From NCBI GenBank assembly GCA_040768905.1, contig JAXGMA010000001.1, forward strand, positions 383,464 to 447,463: DNA of 64,000 nucleotides. The letters run 5' to 3'. A program made the position numbers and the translations under genes. Positions 31,648 to 62,354 of the stretch are shown here, one piece after another (positions within the stretch are counted from its first letter, which is position 1; each line of letters starts with the position of its first letter). The stretch comes from Christensenellales bacterium. GTDB lineage: Bacteria > Bacillota > Clostridia > Christensenellales > SZUA-584. Under the pieces are notes generated by a model that was not told the origin of the DNA, did no database searches, and saw only the letters and a program-made list of their open reading frames with translations.

Positions 31648-31666
31648 TTGATTGTATTATCCATAT

Positions 31667-32233: not shown

Positions 32234-32266
32234 AATTACCAACTCCTGTTTTTTGATGAGACGAGT

Positions 32267-33961: not shown

Positions 33962-33963
33962 AT

Positions 33964-35520: not shown

Positions 35521-35600
35521 GGAGAGGGAGGGGATCACTATGTAAAAACAACACGACGGATTTGGATTATAAAAGATAAATAACAGAAAGGATTTACGAG

Positions 35601-36488: not shown

Positions 36489-36492
36489 GGAT

Positions 36493-36786: not shown

Positions 36787-36976
36787 ACCATGATGGTGCA
36801 TAGATCAATATACAAAGCGGCTGTTTGCACCACTATGGTGCATTTTTATTTTCAGAGTGTTGCGCACATATGCAAAAGTGCTGTTGGGTTGGCGGATACA
36901 ACGAAGGGAGGCGGTATGTTTTGAAGCCTCGCAGAGCCCCGCGGGAGCGCCCACTGGGCATCTTTCAGCTCGTCTG

Positions 36977-37015
36977 AAAGTGTCATAGTGGGTAATACAC
37001 TTCCTTCGGAAGTGT
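36977..37015 (+). other. Putative MOBV oriT
   Basis: AAGTGTCATAGTGGGTAATACACTT resembles the pMV158-family oriT; overlapping inverted repeats; ~40 bp upstream of the relaxase. Confidence 0.65.
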
Positions 37016-37053
37016 CCGTCTCCCCAGCGCCGTTTGAAAGGAGTTATTGATGT

Positions 37054-41095: not shown

Positions 41096-41096
41096 T

Positions 41097-42731
41097 ATGA
41101 GAATCAGATGGGATGAACTGATCAAATTGATGACGCCAAAGCTAAGCCGTGAGAACTTTATTGCACAGGTTGTAGAACACGGTTATTTTGCTGAACAGTT
41201 TCCCACCTGCTTTTCTTCAAAAATATTCGCACAGAAATTAGACAATTTGCTACCCTGTATTTCATGTTCAAGCAAAAAAGTAAAAAAAGAAGATAAAACT
41301 ACGCTGCCTACTACACTATCAAGCTATAAAAACGATATATCAAGGCGAATACTTTCGTTGCCTAATCCAAAAGCCTTTTTGCGTCTTGCCGTGCTTATGC
41401 AAGAGAATTGGGATGAAATCCAAGAATTTGCCGAGAGTCCTAACTCCCTTTCCCCCATCACCTATATACATAAATATAAGTCAAGTCAAAGAGCTTCCTT
41501 AAATAGCGAAAATCTGAGGGAAAGCCAATTCTCTAAAAGTGATTTTGTTGATGGTATAAAAAACTGTATTGAAGCCTCGTTGGGTTACAATTATCGGCTA
41601 AAGCTAGACATTTCAAATTGCTATAATTCGATATACACACATTCCGTTGCATGGGCAGTATGCGGTAAAGCTCAAGCAAAGGAATATATGCGTACAAAAC
41701 AGCCACAAGCCTTACGACCAAAATATGATTTGGCTGATAAATTAGATTCTTTCATGAGATATCAAAAAAACAACGAAACAAATGGAATTTTGGTTGGGCC
41801 TTTCACATCTCGAATTTTTTCTGAAATTATCCTTGCTGCAATAGATAAAGCATTGGATGAGGAAGGATATCAGTTTAGAAGGTATGTAGATGATTACAAA
41901 TTCTATTTTCGTACAGATTCTGAAGCTCAAGCAAATTTACCAAAGATTGAACGCACACTCAACGAATACAACTTAAATATAAACACTGAGAAAATTGAAA
42001 TTGTCCGTTTTCCTTTTGAGGTGATATCTCAAATAAAAGAGATTTTTGATAGTACTTTTGAAAAGGCAGGTGTATTTGGCGTACTTAACGCCGCCTCTCA
42101 GCTATACTCAAATGGAGAAAAGGGAGCCTTTAAATATGTGCTTAAATATATCAAGAACAAAAAACCCACTCTAGATGATTTTACGTTAGTAATTTCCTCG
42201 TTAATTAACATTATGATTTTAGAGCCAAAATGCGGAAGACACATTATTTCCTATTTCAAAAAACATATGTATTCTTGGAAAAAGGACATCATTACCGAGC
42301 TAATTAATAATGAGTTATCCAATAGCATTAGCAACGAACTACAAGAAGAAGCATTGCTTTTCATGCAAATTATTAAAGAATTAAAGCTCAGCTTATCTGC
42401 ATGTAATCTTATAGATATTCTCGGTTGTTTAAATGATTTTGCAATAATCGTTGCACTTGATATTTGGAAAAGCAGAAGAAGCTCAGTTATAAGAACCCAA
42501 GGTGAAGCAAGAAAAATAAATCAAGCAATTGAACAACTATGCCTTAGTCTTCAAGGAGAACAGTATTCTGGTGCAAGGTGGCTATTGCTATACGAAATAA
42601 AGATTCATGGATTGGTACCACTTGGGAAACAACCAACACCAAATGCGGATAGCTTCTTTGATAAAATGTATTATAGCAAAGTCACTTTTTATCAAAGCAT
42701 CGGTCGCAAACTGTATTATCCAAGGAGGTGA
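41097..42731 (+). CDS. Abi/UG (DRT)-class reverse transcriptase with helical C-terminal domain
   Basis: RRILSLPNP, LDISNCYNSIYTHS, GILVGPFTSRIFSEIIL, RYVDDY, LNINTEK; ~230 aa helical tail ending WLLLYE. Confidence 0.88.
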   Translation: MRIRWDELIKLMTPKLSRENFIAQVVEHGYFAEQFPTCFSSKIFAQKLDNLLPCISCSSKKVKKEDKTTLPTTLSSYKNDISRRILSLPNPKAFLRLAVLMQENWDEIQEFAESPNSLSPITYIHKYKSSQRASLNSENLRESQFSKSDFVDGIKNCIEASLGYNYRLKLDISNCYNSIYTHSVAWAVCGKAQAKEYMRTKQPQALRPKYDLADKLDSFMRYQKNNETNGILVGPFTSRIFSEIILAAIDKALDEEGYQFRRYVDDYKFYFRTDSEAQANLPKIERTLNEYNLNINTEKIEIVRFPFEVISQIKEIFDSTFEKAGVFGVLNAASQLYSNGEKGAFKYVLKYIKNKKPTLDDFTLVISSLINIMILEPKCGRHIISYFKKHMYSWKKDIITELINNELSNSISNELQEEALLFMQIIKELKLSLSACNLIDILGCLNDFAIIVALDIWKSRRSSVIRTQGEARKINQAIEQLCLSLQGEQYSGARWLLLYEIKIHGLVPLGKQPTPNADSFFDKMYYSKVTFYQSIGRKLYYPRR

Positions 42732-42736
42732 ACACT

Positions 42737-45700
42737 ATGCGCACCAATTTCGATTTTTTAACCAAAGATCCGCAGTTTGAACCCTTCGCCGAGGCGGCTG
42801 TTTCGGCGGAGCGTGTGCTGCCTATTTCGCCTGCCCTGTGCGCCACCGCGTGCCGTGCGGCGCTGGAGTTTGCCGTCAAATGGGTCTATAGCGTCGATGG
42901 TTCCCTCAAAAAGCCATACGAGGACAAGCTAGTTACGTTGGTCGGCACCGAGGATTTCAAAGATTTGCTTCCTGTAGGTATGATGCAAAAGCTGAATTAC
43001 CTGCGTAAGGTAGGCAATAACGCCACCCATAATGCCAAGGGCGTGAGCCGGGATCAAGCGATACTGGCCTTGCAAAACCTCCACAGCTTTATGGACTTTG
43101 TGGCGTATTGCTATGGCGTGGATTATAACGAAGTTTCCTTTGATAGATCGTTGCTGGAGGAAAAACCGGCACCTGTTCCTGTGATACCGCCGGAAATGGA
43201 AGAAGTGGATTTCCAGACGCTGCTGGATGAGAACTTCCCCAAGCGCGAGAAGCTTACCGCCAAGCGTGTGGCGCAACTTAAGCAAGGCTATACCGTCAAG
43301 CCTATGGATATGACGGAGACGCAGACCCGCAAGGCGTATATCGACGTCATGCTGCAGGACGCCGGCTGGCAGCGCGGCCCCAACTGGGCCGAAGAATATC
43401 CCATCGACGAAATGCCCAACAAGTCAGGCAAAGGCGCGGCCGATTATGTGCTGCTGGGCGATAACGGACTGCCGCTGGCAGTCATTGAGGCCAAGCGCAC
43501 CAGCGTCAATGTGGAAAAAGGGCGTCAGCAGGCAGTGCTGTATGCGGACTTTCTGGAGAAGAAATTTGGACAGCGCCCAATCATCTTTATGACCAATGGC
43601 TACGAGACGCGTATCTGGAGTGATAAGTACTATCCTGAGCGGTTGGTATCCGGTATCTATTCCAAACGGGATTTGGAAAAAGACTTTAACATCATGAAAA
43701 GCCGTACTGCATTGAATGCGGTGCGGGTCAACGATGACATATCGAACCGATACTATCAGAAAGAAGCCATACAGGCAATATGCGATGCGTTTGACGATCG
43801 CAACCGGCGCAAGGCGCTGCTGGTCATGGCCACCGGCAGCGGTAAGACGAGGACGGTCATTTCCCTTGCGGATGTGCTGATTCGGCACGGATGGGTAAAG
43901 AATCTGCTGTTTCTCGCCGACCGCAATGCTTTGGTAACACAAGCCAAGCGTGCCTTTCATAACCTGATGCCCAATCTTTCTCTATGCAACCTTACCGAGG
44001 GGAAGGAGGAGGCCAGCGCCCGCGCGATATTTTCAACCTACCAAACCATGATGAACTGCATTGATTCTACACGTGATGAGCAGGGGCAGCGGCTGTTTAC
44101 GCCGGGGCATTTTGACCTGATTATCGTCGATGAGGCGCACCGAAGCATCTATAACAAGTATAAGGACATTTTCACCTACTTTGACGCGCTGCTGGTCGGA
44201 TTAACCGCGACACCTAAGGATGAAATAGATAAAAACACCTACGGCATTTTTGATCTGGAAAGCGGTGTGCCCACTTATGGATACGAGCTTTCTCAGGCGG
44301 TGCAGGACGGGTATCTGGTGGACTTTGTATCCATCGAAACTGAATTAAAATTTATGACTAAGGGCATAGCTTATGCGGAGCTTTCTCCGGAGGAGCAAGA
44401 GGAGTATGAAAACACGTTTGCCGATGAGGACGGCAACGTGCCGGAGAACATCGATTCCAGTGCCATAAATGAGTGGATTTTCAATCAAGATACCATCAAA
44501 AAGGCGCTGCATATCCTCATGCAGCATGGGCAGCGTGTAGACTTTGGTGAGAAAATCGGTAAGACGATTATCTTCGCCAAGAGTCACAAGCATGCCGAAA
44601 AAATAATGAAAGTCTGGGCTCAGGAGTTCTCCGATTACCCGAGCCACTATGCGCGGGTAATCGATAACTATACCAACTACGCCCAAAGCCTGATCGACGA
44701 TTTTTCTGATAAAAACAAGTTACCGCAGATAGCTATCTCGGTGGACATGCTTGATACCGGTATCGATGTGCCAGAAATCTTAAACCTTGTCTTTTTCAAA
44801 AAGGTGATGAGTAGGGGTAAATTCTGGCAAATGATTGGCCGTGGAACGCGCACCTGCGAAAAACTTATCGACGGAGAGGACAAACAGCGGTTTTATATTT
44901 TTGACCTGTGCCGAAACTTTGAGTTTTTCCGGCTTCATGCTAAGGGCCGCGAGGCCGGAACGGTGAGCACGTTGCAGGAGCGGATGTTCAATACGAAAGT
45001 TGAAATGGTTTACAAACTACAAGAGATCGGGTTTCAGACGGATACGCTAAAAGAGTACCGCAAAGTGCTTGTGCAGGATCTGGCGGCACAAGTGAAGGCG
45101 CTGCCAAGGGATAATTTTGCGGTAAAGCAGCATCTCCGTATCATAGATAAATATCAGTCCGAGGATGATTTTGATACCTTGACCTATGAGAACACGCTGC
45201 AGATTGCCGAACATATTGCTCCGCTCGTGTTGCCATCGGGCGATGATATTTCAGCGGCTCGGTTTGATATGCTGATCTACCAGATTGAGCTTGCTATGTT
45301 GGCTGGGAAAAGCACAAAGCGTGCAAAAAACGATGTGGTTCGCAAAGCGTCTGAGCTATCAAGGTATGGCAACATACCAGCAATCGCGCAGCAGCAGGAG
45401 CTCATCGAGCAGATTGTACATAACGGTTTTCTTGAGCGGGCGGGCATTTCGGACTATGAGGATGTCCGTATTAAGCTGAGAGATCTAATTAAGTTTATTC
45501 CAGAAGATGAACGTGTGCGATATGACACAAACTTTGCCGACGATATCCTATCCATAGAATGGAATGAGTCTGAGCTTGATAATGATGATTTGGTCAATTA
45601 CAAGAAAAAAATCAGCTATTATATCCTTCAGCATCAGGATATTACGGCCATTGCAAAGCTTAAAGGTAATAAGCCGTTGACTTCTGAAGATGTACGTTCT

Positions 45701-46054
45701 CTCGAGCACATCTTATGGAGCGAGCTGGGTACAAAGGAGCAATATGACGCTCAGTATGGGAAGACCCCTCTGGGTGAACTTGTGCGCTCTATTGTGGGGC
45801 TCAGTCAGCAGGCCGCCAACGAGGCGTTTTCTCGCTTCCTCAATGATGTTGCGATTGACAGTCAACAGATGTTTTTTGTCCGGCAGGTTGTTAATTATAT
45901 CGTCAGAAACGGCATGATGAAAGACTTAGCAGTATTACAGGAAAGCCCTTTTACCGATATGGGTAGTATCAGTGAACTATTTGATGATGCGACAATGTTT
46001 ATGGATTTGCGGACAGTTATTGAAGGGATAAACCGAAATGCCATGGTGGCTTGA
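42737..46054 (+). CDS. hsdR: Type I R-M restriction subunit (EcoEI/EcoAI-like, DUF4145-like N-terminus)
   Basis: ADYVL..IEAKR nuclease, MATGSGKT, DEAH, QMIGRGTR. Confidence 0.95.
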   Translation: MRTNFDFLTKDPQFEPFAEAAVSAERVLPISPALCATACRAALEFAVKWVYSVDGSLKKPYEDKLVTLVGTEDFKDLLPVGMMQKLNYLRKVGNNATHNAKGVSRDQAILALQNLHSFMDFVAYCYGVDYNEVSFDRSLLEEKPAPVPVIPPEMEEVDFQTLLDENFPKREKLTAKRVAQLKQGYTVKPMDMTETQTRKAYIDVMLQDAGWQRGPNWAEEYPIDEMPNKSGKGAADYVLLGDNGLPLAVIEAKRTSVNVEKGRQQAVLYADFLEKKFGQRPIIFMTNGYETRIWSDKYYPERLVSGIYSKRDLEKDFNIMKSRTALNAVRVNDDISNRYYQKEAIQAICDAFDDRNRRKALLVMATGSGKTRTVISLADVLIRHGWVKNLLFLADRNALVTQAKRAFHNLMPNLSLCNLTEGKEEASARAIFSTYQTMMNCIDSTRDEQGQRLFTPGHFDLIIVDEAHRSIYNKYKDIFTYFDALLVGLTATPKDEIDKNTYGIFDLESGVPTYGYELSQAVQDGYLVDFVSIETELKFMTKGIAYAELSPEEQEEYENTFADEDGNVPENIDSSAINEWIFNQDTIKKALHILMQHGQRVDFGEKIGKTIIFAKSHKHAEKIMKVWAQEFSDYPSHYARVIDNYTNYAQSLIDDFSDKNKLPQIAISVDMLDTGIDVPEILNLVFFKKVMSRGKFWQMIGRGTRTCEKLIDGEDKQRFYIFDLCRNFEFFRLHAKGREAGTVSTLQERMFNTKVEMVYKLQEIGFQTDTLKEYRKVLVQDLAAQVKALPRDNFAVKQHLRIIDKYQSEDDFDTLTYENTLQIAEHIAPLVLPSGDDISAARFDMLIYQIELAMLAGKSTKRAKNDVVRKASELSRYGNIPAIAQQQELIEQIVHNGFLERAGISDYEDVRIKLRDLIKFIPEDERVRYDTNFADDILSIEWNESELDNDDLVNYKKKISYYILQHQDITAIAKLKGNKPLTSEDVRSLEHILWSELGTKEQYDAQYGKTPLGELVRSIVGLSQQAANEAFSRFLNDVAIDSQQMFFVRQVVNYIVRNGMMKDLAVLQESPFTDMGSISELFDDATMFMDLRTVIEGINRNAMVA

Positions 46055-46512: not shown

Positions 46513-47193
46513 ATGTACTGTGCAATTATTGGAGACATAGTTGAATCTAAAAAGATCACAAAAAGAGAAGAAATCCAGAATAAATTGGCTAAGAAGTTAA
46601 CTCAAATAAATAAGGAAATACCCAATATTGCATCCAACTTTTCGATAACACTCGGAGATGAGTTTCAAGGTCTGTTACAGTCGTGTGATCATGTTATAAA
46701 AATAGTAAATGCAGTTAAATTAGAAATGTATCCAATTAAAATTCGTTTTGGAGTAGGTCTAGGGGAAATGAGCACCTCTATAAACAAAGAGCTTCCACTT
46801 GGTTCTGACGGTAAAGCATATCATAATGCAAGATCTGCAATAGACGAGATAAAGAAAATCGAAAAACAATATGAGCCACCTGCCATAAATGTAATGATAA
46901 AAATACAAAATGAGATTCTACTCAGTGATAGAAAATATATTGATGTAAATTTGCTGAATATCAATTTTAGTGCATGTTCATTTATTGAGAAGTCATGGAC
47001 TCTAAAGCAAATAGAGGTATTAAAACTAAAGGAGAAAAACCTTACCCAAAGGCAGATTGCTGAAAAGCTAAATATAACTCAATCAAATGTGCAAAGAAGA
47101 ATAGATGCAGCTGGTTATTATACTTATAACTATTGTTTGAATAATATTCAAATATATTTAAAAGAATTATGGGAGACGATGAATGTATACTAA
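46513..47193 (+). CDS. satD: SatD-family protein (nucleotide-cyclase-like palm domain plus C-terminal HTH)
   Basis: AIIGDIVESK, GDEFQG, RFGVGLG, DGKAYHNAR, TQRQIAEKLNITQSNV. Confidence 0.85.
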   Translation: MYCAIIGDIVESKKITKREEIQNKLAKKLTQINKEIPNIASNFSITLGDEFQGLLQSCDHVIKIVNAVKLEMYPIKIRFGVGLGEMSTSINKELPLGSDGKAYHNARSAIDEIKKIEKQYEPPAINVMIKIQNEILLSDRKYIDVNLLNINFSACSFIEKSWTLKQIEVLKLKEKNLTQRQIAEKLNITQSNVQRRIDAAGYYTYNYCLNNIQIYLKELWETMNVY

Positions 47194-47926
47194 TTTTCTT
47201 ATGCTTTTACTTATATCACACTTTATAGGGGATTATTATTTGCAGAGTGCAGAACTTGCTGAACTAAAACAAAAAAAGTCTATTTACGTCTTAAAACATG
47301 GAATAATATATCCTTTACCATGCTTAATACTGCTAAGTTTAGTTTTTAATGTATCATTATTATTATATTTTGGATTATATTGTGTTTTGCATATAGGAGT
47401 GGATCTCCTAAAAAGTTTTGTATTGAAAACGCACAACTCGGATCATAAAAAGAATAAAGCCATTTATGTTATAGATCAATTACTACACATACTTACTATT
47501 GTGGTGCTATCAATAATATACTCATCCAATTATGGTGATGTAAAGTTTCTGGGTTTTATTGAATCATGGATAACTATTAACAGCATTAATGCTCACGAGA
47601 TACTTAGACTAATACTTTTGATAGTAATCATTTTCAAGCCTACCAATATGACTTTCAAAGTGCTATTCGATAACCTAAAAATAAAAAGAGATAATAAGGA
47701 AAATACTGATCCTATAAAAAATATGGGCGCAACTATAGGTAATCTGGAAAGAGCGCTTATGATAGTATTGCTAATTCTGCAACAGTATACGGCGATAGGT
47801 CTTGTAATTGCTGGGAAATCAATTGCAAGATTTAATAGTAATATTGCAGTCGAATACTTTATAATTGGAACATTTTATAGTATATTAGCCACAATCATAC
47901 CGTTTACATTATTATGGGCATTATGA
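47183..47926 (+). CDS. DUF3307 membrane protein (SatE-like)
   Basis: SHFIGDYYLQ, H..VD, DQLLH, GATIGNLER, KSIARF, EYFIIGT; overlaps satD. Confidence 0.85.
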   Translation: MYTNFLMLLLISHFIGDYYLQSAELAELKQKKSIYVLKHGIIYPLPCLILLSLVFNVSLLLYFGLYCVLHIGVDLLKSFVLKTHNSDHKKNKAIYVIDQLLHILTIVVLSIIYSSNYGDVKFLGFIESWITINSINAHEILRLILLIVIIFKPTNMTFKVLFDNLKIKRDNKENTDPIKNMGATIGNLERALMIVLLILQQYTAIGLVIAGKSIARFNSNIAVEYFIIGTFYSILATIIPFTLLWAL

Positions 47927-48125
47927 TAGAGGAGTATATTATGACCAATTATTCCTTTATGAATCAAGAAAGAGGTGCAGTGAGTTTCTAGGCGCCTGAG
48001 TACGCCATTGATTTGTAATATCGCATCAACTATTATAAACAAGTTTGGAGGGTTTTAATTTGAATACACACAAGCATAGTGTTATGCTATAATGCAAAAG
48101 AAGGTCTTTATTATGAGTTGGTTTC

Positions 48126-48262
48126 CGGCAACATTCTGGCAACAAAAAATCAGATAGCCAAAAAGCTATGGGTAACTGATACAATACAAATACCACGAGC
48201 CATATTACATAAGCAGAAATGTTTAAGTCATGCTCTCAAGGAGCGAGTGGGAATGATTGAAC
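48126..48262 (+). repeat. attR copy A
   Basis: GGCAAC x2 arm, TAAGC-N6-GTTTA at 48210, core CGAGTGGGAATGATT at 48244. Confidence 0.85.
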
Positions 48263-48422
48263 AGATAATATAAATAATATGGATAACACAGAGAAACGCC
48301 ACGACTATTCGCGGCGTTTTTTGATAAGGCACCTGAAAACCATATCGTCAAATATGCGAAATATTGACAAACTTCGCTTAAACCAATACACTATACACAG
48401 ATTACCAGTGTGTGGGTATTAT

Positions 48423-49157
48423 ATGAAGATATTAGATTTTGTTGATCTCACAAATCTTAATACACGTACTGAGGCAGAGCGGGCAAAGTTGTTGTGTTTT
48501 TATCATTATAATGAAACTGACGAACGTCAATTTTCTATGACTTTGATATCTGATCTTATGCAGCAATTTGGTTTTAATATTCCAAATGTTTCACGTCTTA
48601 AAGATAAACTCATAAAGGGAAAGGATAAAATATTTCTGCCTATTAAGGGATCCAAAGGTGAGTATAAGTTTATTCCGGCCATATTGCAAGGGCTTGAGAG
48701 AGAATATAGTCATGCTTGGAATGATACAGAAACAATTGTGTCGGATAGTGAGTTAATTGAAGAAATAAAGTTTTGTGGAAAGCGCAATTCTACTACGCGG
48801 TTAATTCAGCAAATAAATTCTTCATACAAGAATCATTGTTACGATGCTTGCGCAGTACTTATGCGACGGCTGTTTGAGGTAATATTGATCCTTACCTACC
48901 AAAATTTGAACATCGATAATGAAATCAAATCAAATGATAAATACATAATGTTAAAAGATATCGTTAAAAATGCAAGACAGAATAAAAAGCTAAAATTAAC
49001 TCTAATAAAAGATGAGTTTGATAAATTTAGAGATGTCGGGAATTATTCGGCGCATAGCATTGATTATACAGCAGGTAAAAAAGATATTGATGATGTAAAA
49101 CTTAAATATAGGGTGATGCTTGAAGAGCTATATAACAAAGCGGGGTTGATAGTATGA
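48423..49157 (+). CDS. wHTH-like plus DUF4145/HEPN-like protein
   Basis: YDACAVLMRRLFE and RDVGNYSAH (RxxGNxxAH); start at 48423 or 48279. Confidence 0.7.
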   Translation: MKILDFVDLTNLNTRTEAERAKLLCFYHYNETDERQFSMTLISDLMQQFGFNIPNVSRLKDKLIKGKDKIFLPIKGSKGEYKFIPAILQGLEREYSHAWNDTETIVSDSELIEEIKFCGKRNSTTRLIQQINSSYKNHCYDACAVLMRRLFEVILILTYQNLNIDNEIKSNDKYIMLKDIVKNARQNKKLKLTLIKDEFDKFRDVGNYSAHSIDYTAGKKDIDDVKLKYRVMLEELYNKAGLIV

Positions 49158-50101
49158 TAGAAGACAAAACGGAAATTCGTGTTAAATTCAAAATAGGTGA
49201 AATCGAATTTGAAGCGCAAGGAACGGCTGATTTGGTTGAAAGGGAACGTAGTATCTTTTCTAATACGCTCCTACCATCTGCTGTTGATGCTATTGTACGT
49301 ACCCGTAGTGTTGCTCAAGCAAACAAATATGTTGAAGCTGTTGAGCAACCTTCGAAGATATTAGCTGAAGAGACAAGTAAGAAGAATGCTATAGATACTA
49401 TATCTACATCTAAAGAAAACGATTATTCGCGGATGAATCTTGCATCTTACTTAAAGGGTTTTGGTACTTTAACTGAACAAGACTTCACATTGTTTGCAGC
49501 CTATTTTGATGAAATGAAAAATGGTACTAAGTATTTTACAATAGAAGATTTGGAAAGATATTATTCTGAGGCACGAAGAACAGTACCATCAAATCCTAGC
49601 ATGTCGCTTAACCGATTAGCTAAGAAAAGACACATTATGGATGCTGTTGACGTTGAGCAAAAGAAGCCTAAACCATATATAGTATCCAGTGATGGTATAG
49701 AATACATAAAAGAATATCAGCCTAAACAAGAGAATGAGAAGAAATCGCCAAAAACACGAAAACCTCGTTTAAAAGTAGAGTCTGCATATTCAGGCCTAAA
49801 TATTAATGAGTTAAACCTTCAGAATTATCCTGAAGTAAAGTCACTAAAAGTTTTTAAAGAAAAAATGATGATGGTACTATTTATCCTAACTGTTGAAAAC
49901 AAGGGGGAATGGTTTACGGTAGGGGATATACTTTATCTTATGTCAGATGTTTTTGGTGAACATGTAACAAGAAATATGATAAATGGAGTATTCAAAAGAG
50001 ATAAATTATGGTTTAAGGCTGAAAACATTGATGGAAATAAAAAAGAAATGAAGCGTAAGTTATTAAATAAAGGTTTTGATTATGCAAAAGCGCTTTTATA
50101 A
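49154..50101 (+). CDS. Hypothetical protein with probable wHTH domains
   Basis: Overlaps the upstream stop (ATGA); KIGEIEFEAQG N-terminus; NPSMSLNRLAKK..YIVSSDG. Confidence 0.65.
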   Translation: MIEDKTEIRVKFKIGEIEFEAQGTADLVERERSIFSNTLLPSAVDAIVRTRSVAQANKYVEAVEQPSKILAEETSKKNAIDTISTSKENDYSRMNLASYLKGFGTLTEQDFTLFAAYFDEMKNGTKYFTIEDLERYYSEARRTVPSNPSMSLNRLAKKRHIMDAVDVEQKKPKPYIVSSDGIEYIKEYQPKQENEKKSPKTRKPRLKVESAYSGLNINELNLQNYPEVKSLKVFKEKMMMVLFILTVENKGEWFTVGDILYLMSDVFGEHVTRNMINGVFKRDKLWFKAENIDGNKKEMKRKLLNKGFDYAKALL

Positions 50102-50128
50102 CAATGCAAGATAAATAATACCGAACCT

Positions 50129-50252
50129 CGGCAACATTTTGGCAATAAAAAACCAGATAGCCGAAAAGATATGGATGACGGATACAATACAAATACCACG
50201 AGACATAATGCCTAAACAGAAATGTTAAGATTCGCTTCCGAAGAGCGAGTGG
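50129..50252 (+). repeat. attR copy B (diverged direct repeat of copy A)
   Basis: About 125 bp alignable with 48126-48250, ending GAGCGAGTGG. Confidence 0.85.
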
Positions 50253-50299
50253 ATAATATTGATAATAAAAATAATGAGGATATGAAGGAGAAAGTAAGA

Positions 50300-52042
50300 G
50301 TGAGCAAGCTAAATGTTGATCAAAAGACAATTAAAGACTTGCTGACTGATAAATCAGCAAATTTTCTTATTCCTGATTATCAGCGCCCATATGCTTGGGA
50401 AGAGGATGAGTGCCAGACGCTTTGGGATGACATATTTAGCTTTGCTTTTCCTGATAATAATAAAGATTCTTTTAAAGCAAGTGACGAATACTTTCTTGGT
50501 GCTATCGTTACGTTTAAGAATGATGGAGGACAATCAGAGGTCATAGACGGCCAGCAACGTCTAACGACGATTCTGCTGCTTTTGAGGGCGTTCTACGATA
50601 GGTTTAAACGTATGGCTGATCAACCTTCAAAGGATATGAGGAAGAATATTTCACAGTGCATTTGGCGAACCGACGAGTTCGGAAATGCCGATATGGCGAA
50701 CTTAAAGATTGACTCCGAGGTTGCAACCGATGATGAGAAAGAGGAATTTTTGTCTATCCTAAGAAGCGGGGTGTCTGCGAAGACGGCCAACAGTAAATAC
50801 GTCAAGAACTATCGCTTCTTCGAAACAAAAATAAATACCTTTGTTGATGAGTATCCGTCATATTTTGCTTATTTGCCAGCGCGGATCTTGAACAACTGTA
50901 TTCTTTTGCCTATTGAGGCTGACTCACAGGATACAGCACTTAGGATTTTCTCGACGCTGAATGATCGCGGCTTGCCTCTTGCGGATGCCGATATCTTCAA
51001 GGCACAATTCTATAAATATTATGAGAAGAAAGGGACGAAGAGCGAATTCATCGACAACTGGAAGGAACTATCTTCTGTCACCGAGAGAATATTTCATCCA
51101 AGCAACGGTACTCCGATGGATGAATTATTCACAAAACATATGTACTACATCCGAGCTTCTGAAGGCAATAAATCCACTACAACGGAAGCGCTGCGCAAAT
51201 TCTATGAGTACGATAAATATCGTAGGCTTCTTATGGAGCATACGATAGATGACTTGATGATTCTGCTCGATTTCTGGGAGTCTGTGGTTGAACAAGAAGT
51301 GAAGCGCTTTTCAGAGGATGTACTACAAAAGTTATTCGTGCTGAAATACGCTCCCAATGGTATGTGGGAATACATCACTTCGGTGTATTTTTTATCTTAC
51401 AGGGACAACAAAGGCGGTTTGGATAATACAGCTTTTGCAAAATTCTTATCGAAGATAACAGCTTTCATATTTGCGTACTCCCTTACGAATCCGGGCGTGA
51501 ATGCGCTACGCACACCTGTATATGCAGAGATGATTAAAGTATATGACAAACAACGATGTGATTTTGCAGATTTTAAATTTAACGAAGAGCATATTCGAAA
51601 GGTGCTGGAAAACTATAAATTTACAAACAACAGGTTAGTAACCCGGTCCCTGATTACATGGTATGCGTTTTCGTTTGAGGGGCAAAAAAGGCCACCATCT
51701 GATAGTAGCGGTTTCGACATCGAGCATATCTACGCTAAAGAGCGTCACAACAAGGAAAATAAACTTCTGAATCCTGAAAAGATTGAGGAACTAGGCAACA
51801 AGATTCTGCTTGAAAAATCCATTAACATTCGCGCTTCGGATTACAGATTCGAAGATAAGAAAAAATACTATAATGGATATACCGATGCGAAAGGGAAAGT
51901 GCATCCTGCAAGTATAATTAAAGAGTATCGCCATTTGACGCAAAAAGAAGACTTTTTGGAAGTAGATATTGATGAACGAGACATGCAGATACACAACAAG
52001 TTTGTTGAATATCTTAGAGTAGAAGGATTGTTGAAGGAGTAA
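50300..52042 (+). CDS. GmrSD-family type IV restriction endonuclease (DUF262 + DUF1524/HNH)
   Basis: IPDYQRPYAW, IDGQQRLTT, FSTLNDRG, DIEHI, LGNKILL..N; AAGGAG RBS before GTG 50300. Confidence 0.88.
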   Translation: MSKLNVDQKTIKDLLTDKSANFLIPDYQRPYAWEEDECQTLWDDIFSFAFPDNNKDSFKASDEYFLGAIVTFKNDGGQSEVIDGQQRLTTILLLLRAFYDRFKRMADQPSKDMRKNISQCIWRTDEFGNADMANLKIDSEVATDDEKEEFLSILRSGVSAKTANSKYVKNYRFFETKINTFVDEYPSYFAYLPARILNNCILLPIEADSQDTALRIFSTLNDRGLPLADADIFKAQFYKYYEKKGTKSEFIDNWKELSSVTERIFHPSNGTPMDELFTKHMYYIRASEGNKSTTTEALRKFYEYDKYRRLLMEHTIDDLMILLDFWESVVEQEVKRFSEDVLQKLFVLKYAPNGMWEYITSVYFLSYRDNKGGLDNTAFAKFLSKITAFIFAYSLTNPGVNALRTPVYAEMIKVYDKQRCDFADFKFNEEHIRKVLENYKFTNNRLVTRSLITWYAFSFEGQKRPPSDSSGFDIEHIYAKERHNKENKLLNPEKIEELGNKILLEKSINIRASDYRFEDKKKYYNGYTDAKGKVHPASIIKEYRHLTQKEDFLEVDIDERDMQIHNKFVEYLRVEGLLKE

Positions 52043-52098
52043 ATGCTTAGGGCACCTGTGAAGAAAAGCACATAGAGTATATTCACAAAGCAATCAGG

Positions 52099-52325
52099 TT
52101 GATAACAGGCCCTTGATAGCATTTTGATAACAGAAGATCAGCGAACACCGTAGAGGGTGGATAACTGGTATTAAATTGAGTAAAAACCTATCACGAAATC
52201 TAAACAGAATTGTTTAGATTAAGCTTTGAATTTGCGAGTGGAAGTGAGCACAAGAAACTCGGAAAGCCGCATGAATACTGGGTTTTTAGAGAGTTTCAGC
52301 CTCCGGTGATACTGTTTTGATACTA
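52099..52325 (+). repeat. Two-armed att junction C with TGATA-type arms
   Basis: TTGATAAC/TTGATAGC repeats, TAAAC-N6-GTTTA at 52201, core CGAGTGG at 52235, palindrome 52261-52287, TGATACT x2 from 52307. Confidence 0.75.
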
Positions 52326-52369
52326 TAACGTCAAAGAAATTATCGGAGAGTAATTCCATAACAGACATG

Positions 52370-52413
52370 AAAATGTCCGACGAAACAACAAGCTTGTTTT
52401 GCCGGACATTTTT
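52370..52413. terminator. Hairpin/terminator at the 3' end of the second XRE gene
   Basis: AAAATGTCCG..CGGACATTTT. Confidence 0.65.
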
Positions 52414-52910
52414 TATTTTTGTTTATTTGTTCGTTTTGCATCAAGCTCAGCTTTGAATCGTTCGGCCTCAATACGAGGATAGTTGTAACGCCAAGTGTCG
52501 TATTCCTCTTTAGTGATTGTGCCAGCTTTGAGTTTTTCGGCTTCATGCTGCCAAGCACTGAGCATATCAAACATGGAAAGGTAGGTGCTTTCTCTGGTTT
52601 TATCAAGCGTCAGGCAAAGCTTTCCGTCAATGCTGTTGATTTTGAGGCCGTACAAGCCCTCAAGTGCGAACAAGGTGTGCATGAGGCCGACATAACTTTC
52701 AATGTTAGGAACTTTAAGCGCATATGGACTGACGTCTAAGACATTGGCGAGATTAGAGACCAGCTTGTCCTTGGGCGTTCTGGTACCGGACTCATATTGC
52801 GCCATGCGGACATCAGCGGTCTTTTCATCAAAACCAATGGCTTGTCCGAGCCATTTTTGCGTCATACCGCGCAGATTTCGGATAAACCGGATTCTTTCAC
52901 CAATTGACAT
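52413..52910 (-). CDS. Second XRE repressor, paralog of 31724-32233
   Basis: About 80% aa identity by manual alignment; same position relative to an att arm. Confidence 0.9.
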   Translation of the reverse strand: MSIGERIRFIRNLRGMTQKWLGQAIGFDEKTADVRMAQYESGTRTPKDKLVSNLANVLDVSPYALKVPNIESYVGLMHTLFALEGLYGLKINSIDGKLCLTLDKTRESTYLSMFDMLSAWQHEAEKLKAGTITKEEYDTWRYNYPRIEAERFKAELDAKRTNKQK

Positions 52911-53541: not shown

Positions 53542-54363
53542 ATGAGTATTATGGTAGAAGATATTTCTATAAAGCAAAATTGTATGCCGTCTGATTTATA
53601 CTGTAATAATTTGAATCAAAATAGCATGCCGAAACGGCATTTGCCTTTTTCTTTGGATGTCAGTGGAGCACGAAAAGTTCTTCGGCAAGAACACAAATTT
53701 TCAATCACACAAATACAATTCAGACAGCACAGCGCATCGGTATCAATAGTAATGAATACAGACAAGAATAATGGACGTGACGGGTATATGGTGCGTTCAT
53801 TATATTTTGATACCCTCAACGATTACGATTATTGGACAAAAATTGACGGTGTAGACTCGCGCAGAAAAATCCGCTTGCGGATTTACAATACCGACAGCGC
53901 ATTTGCGCAGCTTGAAATGAAACAAAAACAGTCTATATACCAGTTAAAACGCTCGATAAAAATTAAACGCGAAGATGCGATTATGCTGTCGGAAGGGCAG
54001 TATACCCCGCTGCTTTGCTATGATGACCCCTTCGCGGTCGAGTGTTATACGCTGCTCAGCACGAGAGGTTACGTACCCAAAACCATCGTTCAATATCAAA
54101 GGCTGGCGTTTGTGGGCAAAGGAGAAGACATACGGATTACTTTTGACCATGAGCTTAAGGCATCCGAGAGCTGCTTTGATCTTTTCTCGGACAAACTGTG
54201 TTTGTATCCGATCAAAGATTCATTCAATGCTGTATTAGAGGTAAAGTACAATGGTTTCTTATTTAGTTACATAAAGGAATTGCTGCAACGGTTCGAAAAA
54301 AGTCCTGTGGCTTCAAGTAAATACTGTATGGCCCGCACAGTGACGCTTGGAACATATATCTAA
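53542..54363 (+). CDS. VTC / polyphosphate-polymerase-domain protein
   Basis: RQEHKF, VRSLYFD, RRKIRLRIY, RITFD, LEVKY, SKY. Confidence 0.88.
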   Translation: MSIMVEDISIKQNCMPSDLYCNNLNQNSMPKRHLPFSLDVSGARKVLRQEHKFSITQIQFRQHSASVSIVMNTDKNNGRDGYMVRSLYFDTLNDYDYWTKIDGVDSRRKIRLRIYNTDSAFAQLEMKQKQSIYQLKRSIKIKREDAIMLSEGQYTPLLCYDDPFAVECYTLLSTRGYVPKTIVQYQRLAFVGKGEDIRITFDHELKASESCFDLFSDKLCLYPIKDSFNAVLEVKYNGFLFSYIKELLQRFEKSPVASSKYCMARTVTLGTYI

Positions 54364-54374
54364 AGGGAGGCAAT

Positions 54375-55052
54375 ATGAAAGACATACTGTTAGACTTGTT
54401 TGAATCAACAAACGATACATTGGATTTAGGGCAGATTGCGACCAATATTGGCTTTGCGGCTGTGCTTGGTATTGCAATTTTTTTGTCCTATTGGGTCAGC
54501 CATACCGGCACGATATACAGCAAGAAATTTAACGTATCTTTGGTTACGCTCACCATTTTGACCGCAACGGTAATGTCTACGATTAGCAATAATATCGCAT
54601 TATCTTTAGGCATGGTTGGAGCGCTTTCAATCGTTCGGTATCGTACAGCGGTAAAAGATACGCGCGATACGGCATATATTTTCTGGAGCATCATAGCGGG
54701 CATATGCAGCGGCGCAGGTGATTATGTTGTGGGATCGGTTGGCTCGGCCATCGTTTTTGTTCTTCTGCTGATATTAGGGAGGGTAAAGAACGACAACAGA
54801 GTGCTGATTGTCGTTCGGGGCGCGTTAGCACATGAAAAGGATATTGAGGTGGCCATATTCGATCTATTCAAAAACCGAGCTTCATTGAAAGTTAAAAACT
54901 CCACATCTGAATCAATCGAATTTATCTATGAGGTATCAAAGAAAGCGTATAAAGATGTTCAGAAGAAAGAAACAGGATTGTTCGATTTGATTTATAAAAT
55001 CGGGGATATCGATTATGTGAATGTCGTTACTCAAAATGATGATATCGCATAG
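54375..55052 (+). CDS. DUF4956 membrane protein
   Basis: NIALSLGMVGALSIVRYRTAVKD. Confidence 0.88.
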   Translation: MKDILLDLFESTNDTLDLGQIATNIGFAAVLGIAIFLSYWVSHTGTIYSKKFNVSLVTLTILTATVMSTISNNIALSLGMVGALSIVRYRTAVKDTRDTAYIFWSIIAGICSGAGDYVVGSVGSAIVFVLLLILGRVKNDNRVLIVVRGALAHEKDIEVAIFDLFKNRASLKVKNSTSESIEFIYEVSKKAYKDVQKKETGLFDLIYKIGDIDYVNVVTQNDDIA

Positions 55053-55066
55053 GAGTATGACGCCCT

Positions 55067-56518
55067 ATGAAGTATAGGATTCTGTGTTTTATTATAATAA
55101 TACCAGTTTTGTTGCTGTCGTTATTTTTATCAAAGAATAAAAACGGTTTAATAAGCCGTACGCACCAACATTTAGCGTATAAAGAAAAGACTCAGAGCGA
55201 ACAGGACAAAGACGTGTTTTGGACGCATTTACCGATCATCAAGCTGGATATGGACGGACAGGAACCGGAGGTTTTCAGGGTCGTATATGAAAACGGCATA
55301 TCCGATTCTGTTTCCGCCGACATAAAAGGCACGGTAGAGGTGATAGACAACGAAGAACAAAACAATCATCTTGCCGATCAGCCATCGATGCGCGTTTTAT
55401 CGAACATCAGAGTCAGAGGAAATTCGTCAAAACAATACAATAAAAAGAATTATAAACTCAGTTTTATCTATGAAGACGGCAGTGAAAACAAGCAAACCGG
55501 ACTGCTGGGGATGGAGCCGCATGACGAATGGGCTTTGCACGGCCCGTATCTTGACAGAACGATGATCCGAAACTATTTGTGTATGAATATTACGGGACAG
55601 GTGCTGCCTTATACGCCCGATGTCAGGTTCTGCGAACTTTTTGTGAACGGAGAATACCGGGGCCTTTATGTTGCCATGGAGACCATCGCAAGAGGAAGGG
55701 GTAGAGTGGATATAAAACGGAATGAGGACGGAGATAAAATATCAAGTTATTTGTTGCAGCAAAACTGGTATATTGATAGTCCGAATACAATAGAACCTTT
55801 TACTTGGTACACAAAAATGGCGGATTATTCTACGAGCATACGAATTATGTATCCGGGCAGCAGGTTAACTCCTGAGATCAAAGAGTCAATCACACAGGAG
55901 ATCAGTTCATACGAAAAGGCGCTGTATTCTTTTGATTATAACGACCCGGTGCATGGGTATCAGTCTTTTTATGATGTGGGTTCCTTTGTGGATTATGCAA
56001 TAATCAACGAATTTTTTCAAAACGGGGATGCCGGTTCGTTATCCACATATTTTTACAAAGATTTACGCGGCAAGCTGCATATAGGGCCTGTCTGGGATTT
56101 TAACAATGCGTTTGATAATTTTAATGAACCGGTACCGGATTTTACTACTATGCATTCCTTAAGATATAATATGCTCATAAAAGACAAGGAATTTGTTGAA
56201 CGACTCATAAGACGATACCGTGAATTGAGAAAAACCGTACTTAGCGAGGACTATCTTTTTGATTATATAGATGACACTGTGGCGTTTATCGAACCCGCGC
56301 TGGAACGCAATTTCGAGGTTTGGCCCGATACATTTGACTATGAAATAATGCAGGATGAAATCAGGCTTGATTATGAGTGGCGCAACCCAAAAAACTATGA
56401 AGAAGCGGTCGATAAGTTGAAGGAATTCATAAAAAAACGCGGCAGCTGGCTGGATAAACATATAGAAACTTTGCGTCAGTTCTGCCACGAATCTGCGACT
56501 AAGAAACACAACCGATAA
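55067..56518 (+). CDS. CotH-family kinase, membrane-anchored
   Basis: RVRGNSS..KKNY, DRTMIRN, NGEYRGLY..E, GPVWDFN. Confidence 0.88.
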   Translation: MKYRILCFIIIIPVLLLSLFLSKNKNGLISRTHQHLAYKEKTQSEQDKDVFWTHLPIIKLDMDGQEPEVFRVVYENGISDSVSADIKGTVEVIDNEEQNNHLADQPSMRVLSNIRVRGNSSKQYNKKNYKLSFIYEDGSENKQTGLLGMEPHDEWALHGPYLDRTMIRNYLCMNITGQVLPYTPDVRFCELFVNGEYRGLYVAMETIARGRGRVDIKRNEDGDKISSYLLQQNWYIDSPNTIEPFTWYTKMADYSTSIRIMYPGSRLTPEIKESITQEISSYEKALYSFDYNDPVHGYQSFYDVGSFVDYAIINEFFQNGDAGSLSTYFYKDLRGKLHIGPVWDFNNAFDNFNEPVPDFTTMHSLRYNMLIKDKEFVERLIRRYRELRKTVLSEDYLFDYIDDTVAFIEPALERNFEVWPDTFDYEIMQDEIRLDYEWRNPKNYEEAVDKLKEFIKKRGSWLDKHIETLRQFCHESATKKHNR

Positions 56519-56546
56519 GCCTGAAGTTTGGGTATGCAACTTAAGG

Positions 56547-58739
56547 ATGTGGCCAATGATATCGATGAAGAAATACTTAATAGTCTGTTTGATTTTGCTT
56601 ATAGCTTTTATTGCGGGCTATAATCTATACTACTATACCGACTTTTATATTGGCTTGTTTGCACCTGAAGTGACCACCTTTATGAAAACAGATGAAGAAA
56701 ACATATATATGTTCAAAGACGGACAGTATCAGGAGTTTGAAATAAAGGGTGTCAATATGGGCGCCGGCGTTCCCGGGCATTTCGCGACCGATTATGCCAT
56801 TACCAAAAAGCAGTATTTAAGGTGGTTTGACCAGATCAAGCAGATGGGGGCCAACACGATACGTGTTTATACCATACTGGGCCCGGCATTTTATGAAGCA
56901 GTATATGAATACAACACCGGCAATGATGATCCTGTCTATATCATACATGGACTTTGGCTCAACGATTATGTGCACTTCTCTCATCGGGACGCGTACCACA
57001 ATGATATTTTAGGTGCGCTTGAGCGTGACAGCCGAAAATTGGTCGATGTGATCTGGGGCAACCGAAACATATATCTTGGCAAAGAGGCCGGCACCGGTTT
57101 ATACAGGCGCAACATATCCCCGTGGGTCATCGGTTATATACTGGGCGTAGAATGGGAGGATTTAACCGTCATATATACCGATCGCAAATATGAAGGGAAA
57201 AAGGATGGTTTTCAAGGCAAATACATGTATACAACGTCCGAGGCTTCACCTTTTGAAGCGTTTTTGGCTCGCATAGGCAACGGTATCATAGATTATGAGA
57301 CGAAGAGGTATGGTGTGCAAAGGCTTGTTGCTTTTTCCAACTGGCCGACAACCGACCCGTTTGATTATAACCACGCCATTACGTATTTTTTCAATAAGGT
57401 TGCCAAAGTTGATGTTGAGCACATAAAAACGACCAATCGTTTTATTTCGGGCACTTTTGCGTCTTACCACGTGTATCCTTATTATCCTGATTATTTGAGT
57501 TATGAGGAAGGTTTGAGCCTGCGGCTGGATCTGGACGGAAAAATCAACACCTATTATTCGTATTTAAAAATGCTCAAAGAGCACCATGACATGCCGGTTG
57601 TTATCAGCGAATATGGTCTGCCCTCCTCGCGCGGCATGACGCAGAGGTATAAGTACGGTGCCCGGCATCAGGGCGGTATGTCGGAGTATGAACAGGCGGC
57701 CGCACTTGTGGACTGTTATAACGACATAAAAAATGCCGGATGCGCGGGCAGTATCGTTTTTTCATGGCAGGATGAGTGGTTTAAACGTACGTGGAACAGT
57801 ATGCATGCCATAGACATGCTAAACACAGCCTATTGGAGCGACTATCAAACAAATGAGCAGTATTTTGGGCTGCTTTCTTTTGATCCTGGCGAAGAAAAAA
57901 GCATCTGTTATGTGGACGGCGATATCAAGGAATGGGAAAACATTGAACCGCTGATCAAGCAAGACGATCTGGTACTGTCTATGATGTATGACGAAAAATT
58001 TATATACTTTATGGTTGAGGGCAAAGACATTTCAGACAAGGATGATCTGTACCTGCCGATCGATGTCACGCCAAAGACGGGAGCAAAATACTGCGACAGT
58101 TATAACATGTTTTTTGACAGAGGTGTTGATTTTATTATAAAAATCAGCGGTGCGGATGAAAGCAATGTGGTTGTGCAGGAACGTTATGAGGTGCTGCGCG
58201 CTGCTTATGGTCAGGAGGTGCTTGAGATAAACCCCTATCAAACGCCTCCCGAAAAGGATACGCCCAAATTCAACCCTATCAATATGATACTTCGGATGAC
58301 AGTGCTGATGGATGAAAATGATGTTGCGCATTTGACGCCGAGAGAGTTCTCAAAGCTTGAGCATATTTTAGCGGAAGTCTATGAAACAGGCAAGCTGGTT
58401 GAAGGCAACGCAAATCCATACAAACAGAATTACAATTCGCTGGCTGATTTTAGTTATGGAGAAGATTGTGTCGAAATTAAAGTGCCATGGCAGCTTCTTA
58501 ACTTTTCCAATCCCAACGAGATGAAAATACATGATGACTATTACGAGAATTTTGGTATCAGCTATATCAATATTAATGAATTGTATATAGGCGCGGCCAA
58601 AAACCCAGCGGCTGGCAGTGAGATCGAAACGACAGCATTTTCGCTCGAAGCCTGGGGTCAAAAAGTGACGTATCATGAGCGCCTAAAACCCGCTTATTAT
58701 GTTTTGCAAAAATTATGGTCGGAGGGAGCAACGCAATGA
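56547..58739 (+). CDS. Secreted TIM-barrel glycoside-hydrolase-like protein
   Basis: IKGVNMG, GANTIRVYT, G.EW, YHVYPYYP, ISEYG, WQDEWFK (GH-A clan-like Glu pair). Confidence 0.7.
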   Translation: MWPMISMKKYLIVCLILLIAFIAGYNLYYYTDFYIGLFAPEVTTFMKTDEENIYMFKDGQYQEFEIKGVNMGAGVPGHFATDYAITKKQYLRWFDQIKQMGANTIRVYTILGPAFYEAVYEYNTGNDDPVYIIHGLWLNDYVHFSHRDAYHNDILGALERDSRKLVDVIWGNRNIYLGKEAGTGLYRRNISPWVIGYILGVEWEDLTVIYTDRKYEGKKDGFQGKYMYTTSEASPFEAFLARIGNGIIDYETKRYGVQRLVAFSNWPTTDPFDYNHAITYFFNKVAKVDVEHIKTTNRFISGTFASYHVYPYYPDYLSYEEGLSLRLDLDGKINTYYSYLKMLKEHHDMPVVISEYGLPSSRGMTQRYKYGARHQGGMSEYEQAAALVDCYNDIKNAGCAGSIVFSWQDEWFKRTWNSMHAIDMLNTAYWSDYQTNEQYFGLLSFDPGEEKSICYVDGDIKEWENIEPLIKQDDLVLSMMYDEKFIYFMVEGKDISDKDDLYLPIDVTPKTGAKYCDSYNMFFDRGVDFIIKISGADESNVVVQERYEVLRAAYGQEVLEINPYQTPPEKDTPKFNPINMILRMTVLMDENDVAHLTPREFSKLEHILAEVYETGKLVEGNANPYKQNYNSLADFSYGEDCVEIKVPWQLLNFSNPNEMKIHDDYYENFGISYININELYIGAAKNPAAGSEIETTAFSLEAWGQKVTYHERLKPAYYVLQKLWSEGATQ

Positions 58740-61314: not shown

Positions 61315-61318
61315 TGGA

Positions 61319-62329: not shown

Positions 62330-62354
62330 TATTGAAACGGAAGGAGAATGACCT

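Follow-up and report, generated by a model that had tools for sequence, protein, structure and literature searches.

Tandem accretion as the probable origin of a 38-kb composite island behind guaA in a Christensenellales genome

We analysed a stretch of 64,000 nucleotides (hereafter the window; contig JAXGMA010000001.1, positions 383,464 to 447,463) from the Christensenellales bacterium genome GCA_040768905.1, a single contig of 2.47 Mb, in which the 3′ end of guaA, the gene for GMP synthase, is followed by a series of related attachment (att) sites. Six guaA-type cores delimit five segments at this locus, E1 to E5, which add up to 38 kb (Table 1). We propose, with a probability of roughly 0.8, that this composite island arose by tandem accretion of guaA-targeting elements, and that an integrative mobilizable element (IME), E1, is accompanied by integrase-less passengers that resemble cis-mobilizable elements (CIMEs). 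Such accretion with cis-mobilisation is an already described mechanism, and the locus is not an integron-like machine, as an earlier sequence-only reading of the same DNA had it.

Table 1. Features of guaA and of the island behind it. Positions are those of the window; "ext." marks extended coordinates, that is, window numbering carried past position 64000. ORF, open reading frame; IS, insertion sequence; R-M, restriction-modification; RT, reverse transcriptase.
Feature	Position or length	Strand	Description
guaA (GMP synthase)	30037..31569	+	Pfam GATase and GMP_synt_C; final codons E-W-E-stop are the attachment core
Segment E1	16.7 kb		complete IME by gene set, defence cargo
attL of E1	31557..31683	+	15-bp direct repeat CGAGTGGGAATGATT in common with site A; hairpin; GGCAAC-N5-GGCAAC at 31630 (right-arm type R-G)
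HTH_3 repressor-like gene, E1	31724..32293	-	Pfam
Small HTH protein, 66 aa	32682..32882	+	excisionase-like (weak); HTH_17 E 9.5e-5, below the Pfam cut-off
Tyrosine integrase with arm-binding N-terminus	32885..33961	+	Arm-DNA-bind_4, Phage_int_SAM_3, Phage_integrase
E1 maintenance/mobilisation module	33958..38274	+	NikA-like, AAA_25 (RepA-like), actin-like ALP, small ORF, Mob_Pre relaxase (Pfam)
E1 cargo, type I R-M	38494..46054	+	hsdM, hsdS, hsdR, with UG30-class RT inside (Pfam, PADLOC)
UG30-class RT gene	41097..42731		between hsdS and hsdR
E1 cargo, SatD-family and DUF3307 genes	46513..47926	+	Pfam
Site A (attR of E1)	48105..48258	+	L-G left arm (GGCAAC x2), box, core GAGTGGGAATGA
Segment E2	2.0 kb		2 ORFs, HEPN-like pair
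Left end of E2 (R-mini)	48245..48325	+	AT-rich stretch and terminator hairpin
E2 cargo	48423..50101	+	DUF4145/DUF5677-like (HEPN-type) protein; partner of no known family
Site B	50129..50252	+	L-G arm (GGCAAC/GGCAAT), degenerate core GAGTGGAT
Segment E3	2.0 kb		GmrSD
E3 cargo, GmrSD-family nuclease	50300..52042	+	Pfam GmrSD_N and GmrSD_C; PADLOC HEC-06/Orf5/SspE models
Site C	52096..52247	+	L-T arm (TTGATAAC-type repeats x3), perfect box, core GAGTGGAA
Segment E4	13.3 kb		truncated IME repressor, cargo as below, IS fragment
Left end of E4	52236..52910	.	R-Y arm (GATACT x2) and truncated repressor gene (52413-52910, -)
E4 cargo, running past the window	53542..64000	+	VTC, DUF4956, CotH, HEAT protein, GT2, polysaccharide deacetylase
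IS fragment			beyond the window
Site C2	ext. 65535		second C-type site
Segment E5	4.5 kb		beta-helix protein, Mutator transposase, Big_2 protein
Site D	ext. 69987		third A-type site; intact core

Attachment sites and their arms

The guaA gene ends in ...CGAGTGGGAATGA (codons E-W-E-stop), and the CGAGTGG found at this end (31557) recurs exactly at 48244, 50246 and 52235, at the three downstream sites A, B and C that the sequence-only reading had recognised. That reading understated the extent of the array, as two additional sites, C2 and D, lie beyond the end of the window. The cores read GAGTGGGAATGA in attL and A, GAGTGGATAATA in B, GAGTGGAAGTGA in C, GAGTGGGAGTAG in C2 and GAGTGGGAGTGA in D. 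Those of B and C are changed at position 7 (B at position 8 too), within the sole stretch that all sites have in common; to judge from the sequence, these changes may hinder strand exchange, and both junctions may be fossilised. Taken alone, the core does not rise above chance: its 10-mer, with at most one mismatch allowed, has 4 matches for a mean of 2.82 in shuffled sequences, and 25 of 100 shuffles reach 4. The significance of the sites thus rests on their arms of 125-150 nt, which match one another at E values of 1e-29 to 1e-56 and are confined to the guaA locus (BLAST against the whole 2.47-Mb genome). Sites A and B are 87% identical in an ungapped alignment of 98 nt and 82.4% identical over 125 nt (E 1.6e-29), the length over which they had been said to align; A and D match at 85% over 130 nt (E 1.4e-36), and C and C2 at 92% over 148 nt (E 1.2e-56).

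Two classes of arm are present. A, B and D have in common a GGCAAC-N5-GGCAAC motif about 117 bp 5′ of the core, a conserved ACCACGAG block and a palindromic box. C is of the other type and shares with A only the box and the core (72% over 47 nt). The arm repeats earlier placed upstream of all three sites are confirmed for A and B, where GGCAAC-N5-GGCAAC(T) lies 117 and 116 bp 5′ of the cores and where the arms are of the attL type, as had been claimed (GGCAAC/GGCAAT in B). Site C, like C2, has instead three TTGATA(A/G)C repeats, located at C 111-136 bp 5′ of the core. The TAAAC-N6-GTTTA box attributed to each site is imperfect in A and B; C has a perfect copy. No Rfam family was matched in region 31400-53000, which indicates that the arms are not a known RNA.

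That the sites are in-situ duplicates or random matches of a short core is hardly credible. A core of 7-10 bp does not by itself exceed chance, as just said, but the arms match far too well for this, the flanking cargo is unrelated, and every arm has counterparts in other genomes that are at least as similar to it as its local neighbours are. In global alignments, the arms of A, B and D are 74-84% alike (B with A 76%), and the arm of A is 99% identical to that of a metagenome contig (L158) and 85% to that of genome G004, which matches the arms of B and D at 79% and 84%, respectively. The arms of A, B and D being no closer to one another than to arms elsewhere, the units seem to have arrived independently. 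The cores next to L-G arms are mutated or lost in G023 and G009.

From the 150 nt on the left and the 120 nt on the right of each core, in this genome and in its relatives, we defined three types of left arm, namely L-G (GGCAAC repeats), L-T (TGATAAC repeats) and L-Y (GATACT repeats), and four types of right end: R-G (a hairpin, then GGCAAC twice), which is the attL of E1; R-T (a hairpin, then TGATAACAG twice); R-Y (GATACT twice, then a repressor gene), which forms the left end of E4; and R-mini (a short AT-rich stretch and a terminator), which follows A and C2 and, in a degenerate form, B. E2 and E5 close on the right with L-G, E3 and E4 with L-T; on the left, E4 opens with R-Y, E2 and E5 with R-mini, and E3 with the degenerate R-mini. 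The repeat class is the same at both ends of E1 (GGCAAC) and of an IME in genome G403 (TGATAACA), whose integrase is 70.5% identical to that of E1. E4 and an element of G002 pair GATACT with TGATAAC, which we read as a single class, TGATA(A)C, and both the R-T...L-Y and the R-Y...L-T pairings are seen. These cases, few as they are, fit the idea that the arm repeats are arm-type integrase sites that co-vary with the integrase.

A (T)GGATAAC motif is found in every arm type (about 70 bp 5′ of the cores in L-G and L-T) and at +33 in R-mini. It resembles what we take to be a DnaA-box-like 9-mer and may bind an accessory protein.

The autonomous element E1

E1 is bounded by the 15-bp direct repeat CGAGTGGGAATGATT at 31557 and 48244, and its right boundary is corroborated by the contig L158 (see below). 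It has an integrase of its own, with a full-length Phage_integrase domain preceded by arm-binding and SAM-like domains, as well as a Mob_Pre relaxase and a NikA-like protein. No family of the type IV secretion system was matched by Pfam in the 14 E1 ORFs scanned, and no oriT was located in E1. By this gene set E1 is an IME, and the only autonomous unit that we recognise in the array. An excisionase-like role of the 66-aa HTH protein is suggested by its location ahead of the integrase gene. Tblastn searches of the whole genome found no second integrase of E1's family (the next best is 25% identical) and none matching the arm class of C and C2; queried with the integrase and Mob, they returned at this locus only the copies of E1.

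The RT gene, with the neighbouring 39740-41095, lies in a patch of 35-39% GC. In comparison with L158, hsdS and the RT gene look like a swapped specificity/RT module in an operon otherwise 90-96% conserved. Directly 5′ of the SatD and DUF3307 genes, neither of which has a PADLOC match, lies a tandem repeat (46363-46471; 29-bp unit, 3.8 copies, 96% matches). Each of its units is an inverted repeat (TGATGC...GCATCA), and the array looks like an operator or iteron array.

Breakpoints in relatives

The claim that the segments are discrete, with breakpoints in relatives that coincide with the cores, is borne out by L158, G037 and G014. L158, one of two stretches obtained by scanning metagenomes for the L-G pattern, is a relative of E1 (90-93% nucleotide identity, 93.3% over 5529 nt; relaxase 90%, HsdM 96%, HsdR 94%, SatD 99% and DUF3307 protein 96% identical), in which the RT gene is absent and HsdS just 35% identical. 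The other stretch, L157, matched over 18 nt only and was dropped. The arm of L158 is 98.7% identical to that of A over 152 nt, and the identity breaks off right after GAGCGAGTGGGAATGATT (position 48258 here), past which L158 continues with a T-type end and another repressor gene. This breakpoint at core A shows that E1 ends at A and exists without E2.

E3 recurs in another species, G037, at 93.3% nucleotide identity over 1969 nt. The homology begins at the core, which is intact there, and runs to an L-T arm at the contig end; on the left, E3 neighbours LuxR, MMPL, CheX and ABC genes, none of which encodes an integrase. In housekeeping DNA the two genomes are 68-77% identical, compared with 93% for E3, and we conclude from this difference that E3 moved horizontally. 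The guaA product of G037 (contig C7, L170) is 57% identical to its counterpart here, and the upstream neighbour 86% over 227 aligned aa; this guaA is either unusually diverged or replaced.

In G014, of another genus, an R-mini end lies directly behind guaA and is 87% identical over 76 nt to the one at C2, with further homology to the left part of E5. E2, E5 and a 2.2-kb insert sitting right behind guaA in G003 and G004 have their ends alone in common (left, 76-81 nt at 75-82%; right, 124-154 nt at 81-85%), the cargo being unrelated. In G403, of another family, the order is guaA, a T-class IME, a core, about 1 kb, homologues of both E2 genes (65% and 48% aa identity), an L-G arm (GGCAAC twice) and a core, GAGTGGAA.

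Passenger segments and their cargo

E2 to E5 are all bounded by att sites, with ends related to IME att sites, and have neither integrase nor transfer genes (Pfam, all ORFs of at least 90 aa), as is characteristic of CIMEs. The absence of integrase and mobilisation genes between A and B and between B and C, which the sequence-only reading had noted, was found again with Pfam on the ORFs and with tblastn using the integrase. As for an origin by deletion from an integrative and conjugative element (ICE) or an IME, E4 retains a truncated repressor gene (81% nucleotide identity over 300 nt to the repressor gene of E1); E2, E3 and E5 have no remnants of IME genes, and their left ends are not derived from R-G. 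The R-Y...L-T end pair of E4 is also found in G002, there with an integrase 82% identical to that of E1.

The left end of E2 is 82% identical over 76 nt to the sequence right behind guaA in G003 and G004, and 75% identical to the left end of E5. Since a terminator scan placed a hairpin at 48294-48319, we take 48423 as the probable start of the first E2 ORF. A promoter-like site (TTGACA-N17-TACACT) follows the hairpin and could be there by chance, the promoter scan having found 17 sites where shuffled sequences give 16.4. The first E2 protein matches DUF5677 and DUF4145 below the Pfam cut-offs and is similar to Atlas clusters of which 10-29% of the members carry DUF4145; the second belongs with hypothetical Bacillota clusters. 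Neither has a PADLOC match. "HEPN-like pair" is a reasonable label for them, with a role in defence that is putative. In E3, the GmrSD gene starts at 50282 or 50300, not at 50222, and hence does not overlap core B.

The sequence-only reading had gone further and proposed that the locus collects defence cassettes in the manner of an integron. In its full form, this idea would make it a dedicated platform where the resident integrase captures and shuffles single defence cassettes, selected for that role. In its favour, E2 and E3 each consist of a single small unit of defence type flanked by cores, module limits coincide with cores in relatives, and an E2-like cassette appears again right behind the IME of G403. 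We nevertheless hold this proposal to be very unlikely, because the lambda-type integrase belongs to a mobile IME, which is found elsewhere without E2, and not to a fixed platform; because the sites carry attR-type arms of about 125 nt and are not attC, those at C and C2 belonging to another arm class whose integrase is absent; and because E2 opens with a terminator hairpin, promoter-like sites being no commoner than in shuffles. Nor is defence the only cargo, as E4, E5 and the mini-segments of G013, G024, G011 and G004 comprise an oxidase, surface proteins, an oxaloacetate decarboxylase operon and unknown ORFs. Specifically, the segment of G013 (2.2 kb, R-G...L-G) encodes an FAD/BBE oxidase, that of G024 an LPXTG surface protein together with the decarboxylase operon, and that of G004 two unknown small ORFs; among the cargo of small segments tested in relatives, there was no PADLOC match.

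Accretion model and excision

What did stand of the earlier interpretation is that these are serial att sites of guaA-targeting integrative elements. In the history that we propose, elements with a tyrosine recombinase would insert one by one into the last codons of guaA (core GAGTGGGA plus RTRA), each arrival restoring the end of the gene and shifting older elements downstream, so that the junction left behind would combine the newcomer's attR arm, a core and the left end of the older element. In this history, the integrase-less E2, E3, E4 and E5 are CIME-like units behind the autonomous E1, and C and C2 represent a second class of arms (TGATA(A)C repeats), for which the genome has no integrase. 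The integrase and excisionase-like protein of E1 should resolve attL x A and release E1 alone. Because A, B and D share the arm class of E1's attL (GGCAAC), excision by attL x A, attL x B or attL x D seems plausible, and the latter two, which would yield E1 with E2 or the entire 38-kb array, could in principle mobilise the passengers in cis.

It might be argued that the 38 kb from attL to D are instead a single transfer unit, in which A, B, C and C2 are internal relics. D has the arm class of E1 and an intact core, and transfer of ICE-CIME composites is documented, according to one review (PMC5704250). Yet the relative of E1 in L158 ends at A, E3 and E5 are found in other contexts elsewhere, and the arms are only 74-84% alike, which makes such a single unit unlikely.

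Several observations weigh against accretion with CIME-like passengers as just described. The link between repeats and integrase is drawn from one G-class integrase (that of E1) and three T-class ones (G011, G017 and G403; about 70% aa identity), and the other R-G elements examined (G023, G012 and G030) have no integrase within 20 kb. In G403, the E2-like cassette with its GGCAAC arms lies behind a T-class IME, so that neighbouring arms need not match; this unit is 66% identical to E2 at the nucleotide level for 68% in housekeeping DNA, and old vertical inheritance is possible for it. The left ends of E2, E3 and E5 lack GGCAAC, which means that these segments are not simple deletion derivatives of an E1-type element. 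Moreover, homology between R-mini ends stops at the same point, just past the terminator, in three independent cases, which fits a dedicated lineage of mini-elements better than random decay. Finally, no excision joints at A, B or C were seen in four anaerobic-digester runs, low-depth data (Logan contigs, depth 3-6) that are uninformative on excision; these four were examined out of five runs in which 0.33-0.61 of the words sampled from the stretch are present. In one of them, loose ends at 48323 and 52098 proved to be cross-matches of the paralogous C2 site, not variants.

Some of these points lead to a tentative alternative, to which we assign a lesser but appreciable probability: E2, E5 and the G003/G004 insert could be a lineage of non-autonomous elements with a single cargo, R-mini on the left and L-G on the right, served in trans by the integrases of G-class IMEs and swapping cargo. 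The same end pair is found three times with unrelated cargo and with homology that ends at the same points, none of the three has an integrase, and R-mini lies directly behind guaA in four genomes of three genera. It is 74-87% conserved over these genera, compared with native-looking flanks that vary even inside a genus. For this reason we disfavour R-mini as a native guaA terminator (the attB flank), although G028, where R-mini follows guaA with no closing site within 20 kb, leaves room for it to be one there. On the other hand, the sample is small: R-mini has solid matches in 4 of 401 genomes of the order, and a pattern scan for R-mini next to a core found 0 metagenome stretches, with an exact pattern that is perhaps too narrow. 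Furthermore, R-mini has no GGCAAC, such that a circle would have no arm sites on one side, and no circles were observed in the low-depth contig runs. More tentative still is a broader version, in which the small units (E2, E5, the G003/G004 insert and perhaps E3) form a pool of integrase-less single-cargo cassettes with standard ends that parasitise guaA-specific IME integrases across Clostridia and exchange cargo. If true, this would amount to a gene-cassette economy on lambda-type att sites in place of attC.

guaA as an insertion hotspot

Elements at the guaA end are frequent among relatives. An A-type arm is present in 10 of 39 other genomes of the family, three of which have two copies, and in 16 of 401 sampled genomes of the order, our own included (at most two candidates were scored per genome). 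guaA was matched in 35 of the 40 family genomes, and its end could be read in 29 of them (30 loci): 21 of these 29 have a recognisable element end directly behind the gene (R-G in 6, R-T in 5, R-Y in 4, a variant of R-Y in 2 and R-mini in 4), 2 have marginal matches (14 and 19 nt) and 6 have none. In the drafts G036, G039, G018 and G019, the guaA match ends at residues 115-147 of the 199-aa query; their contigs may break just before the guaA 3′ end, as repeated att sites would cause. Among named genome records, 61 stretches contain the pattern of box and core, nearly all of them from metagenome-assembled genomes of Clostridia (labelled, e.g., Christensenellaceae, Oscillospiraceae, Lachnospiraceae or Monoglobaceae). 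Their right flanks are highly diverse, many have a direct-repeat pair of their own, and 2 look like chance.

Arrays and stages of decay are found there as well. The array of G011 is no shorter than 96 kb and has six or more att junctions, of two arm classes, and one of its segments, of 8.3 kb, is a single 2254-aa ORF; in the same genome, a repressor gene is joined to a relaxase gene, the integrase region being gone. In G013, fragments of the repressor and ALP genes come after an R-Y end. In G024 and G032, a cargo-less attL-attR scar of about 170 bp lies directly behind guaA: a core and an R-G end (GGCAAC repeats) run straight into the inner half of an L-G arm, past which come another core and a T-type left end.

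In G004 and G028, the guaA island is succeeded by a conserved chromosomal block, which is located here about 1 Mb off, in inverted orientation (extended coordinates about 1,027,400-1,043,400), and the right end of the island contains IS remnants (rve, Mutator and, after D, a transposase-like stub). These features suggest a large rearrangement, one breakpoint of which is at the island. Owing to the displacement, the original right flank of the island is not definable by synteny with G004 and G028.

The island is a clear and well-delimited case of a housekeeping-gene 3′ end that grows into an island, in poorly studied anaerobic Clostridia. E3 indicates that 2-kb defence units without recombinase still pass between species, which bears on the spread of defence genes. 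The locus is also a warning for annotation, as it comprises 38 kb and six att sites where the integrase alone would suggest 16.7 kb.

Comparison with known systems

Tandem accretion of ICEs or IMEs with CIMEs is said to have been defined on ICESt1 and ICESt3 of Streptococcus thermophilus, reportedly by Pavlovic in 2004 and Bellanger in 2011. The guaA island resembles this system in that the 3′ end of a housekeeping gene is targeted, that an autonomous element and integrase-less units bearing att sites are arranged in tandem, and in its hybrid junctions, decay by internal deletion and several possible alternative excision pairs. It differs from the CIMEs of ICESt1 and ICESt3 in its target and host (guaA in uncultured Clostridia), in its five units and two arm classes, and in two passengers with a recurrent left end that is not derived from the resident attL. 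The review cited above outlines a three-step model of integration, decay to a CIME and integration of a newcomer at the retained att site (PMC5704250). guaA is a listed IME target, and the IMEs named for it are ATE-1, the Brucella IncP island, GIsul2 and the streptococcal Tyr_3 family (PMC5704250, PMC5357655). Judging by these descriptions, E1 is like them in its tyrosine integrase acting on the guaA 3′ end and in its IME gene content; unlike them, it joins Mob_Pre, NikA-like and AAA_25 proteins with an RT-carrying type I R-M system.

The island can further be set beside three other kinds of stacked or serial units. In the staphylococcal cassette chromosome (SCC, SCCmec), cassettes are stacked at the rlmH 3′ end between serial direct repeats, which are short, the enzymes being Ccr serine recombinases, and some cassettes without recombinase genes are thought to depend on those of a neighbour. 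There as here, repeats of the target end delimit stacked units, some of them recombinase-less, but the guaA island has a tyrosine integrase and arms of about 125 nt, and SCC has no lambda-type arms. Integrons hold small gene units in a row, with recombination sites between them, near an integrase gene, and a row of small units split by recombination sites is what our locus has in common with them. Unlike an integron, it has no attI/attC architecture and no fixed integrase: the arm-binding, lambda-type integrase is encoded within a mobile IME, at a distance of 14 kb from the first cassette. Nor do the units end in attC, their sites having arms of about 125 nt homologous to IME attR. In the tycheposon islands of marine cyanobacteria, elements with a tyrosine recombinase and integrase-less remnants stack at one site, the targets being tRNA genes. 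The guaA island has the same make-up of stacked elements and integrase-less remnants that build a variable island, at a different target and in a different lineage.

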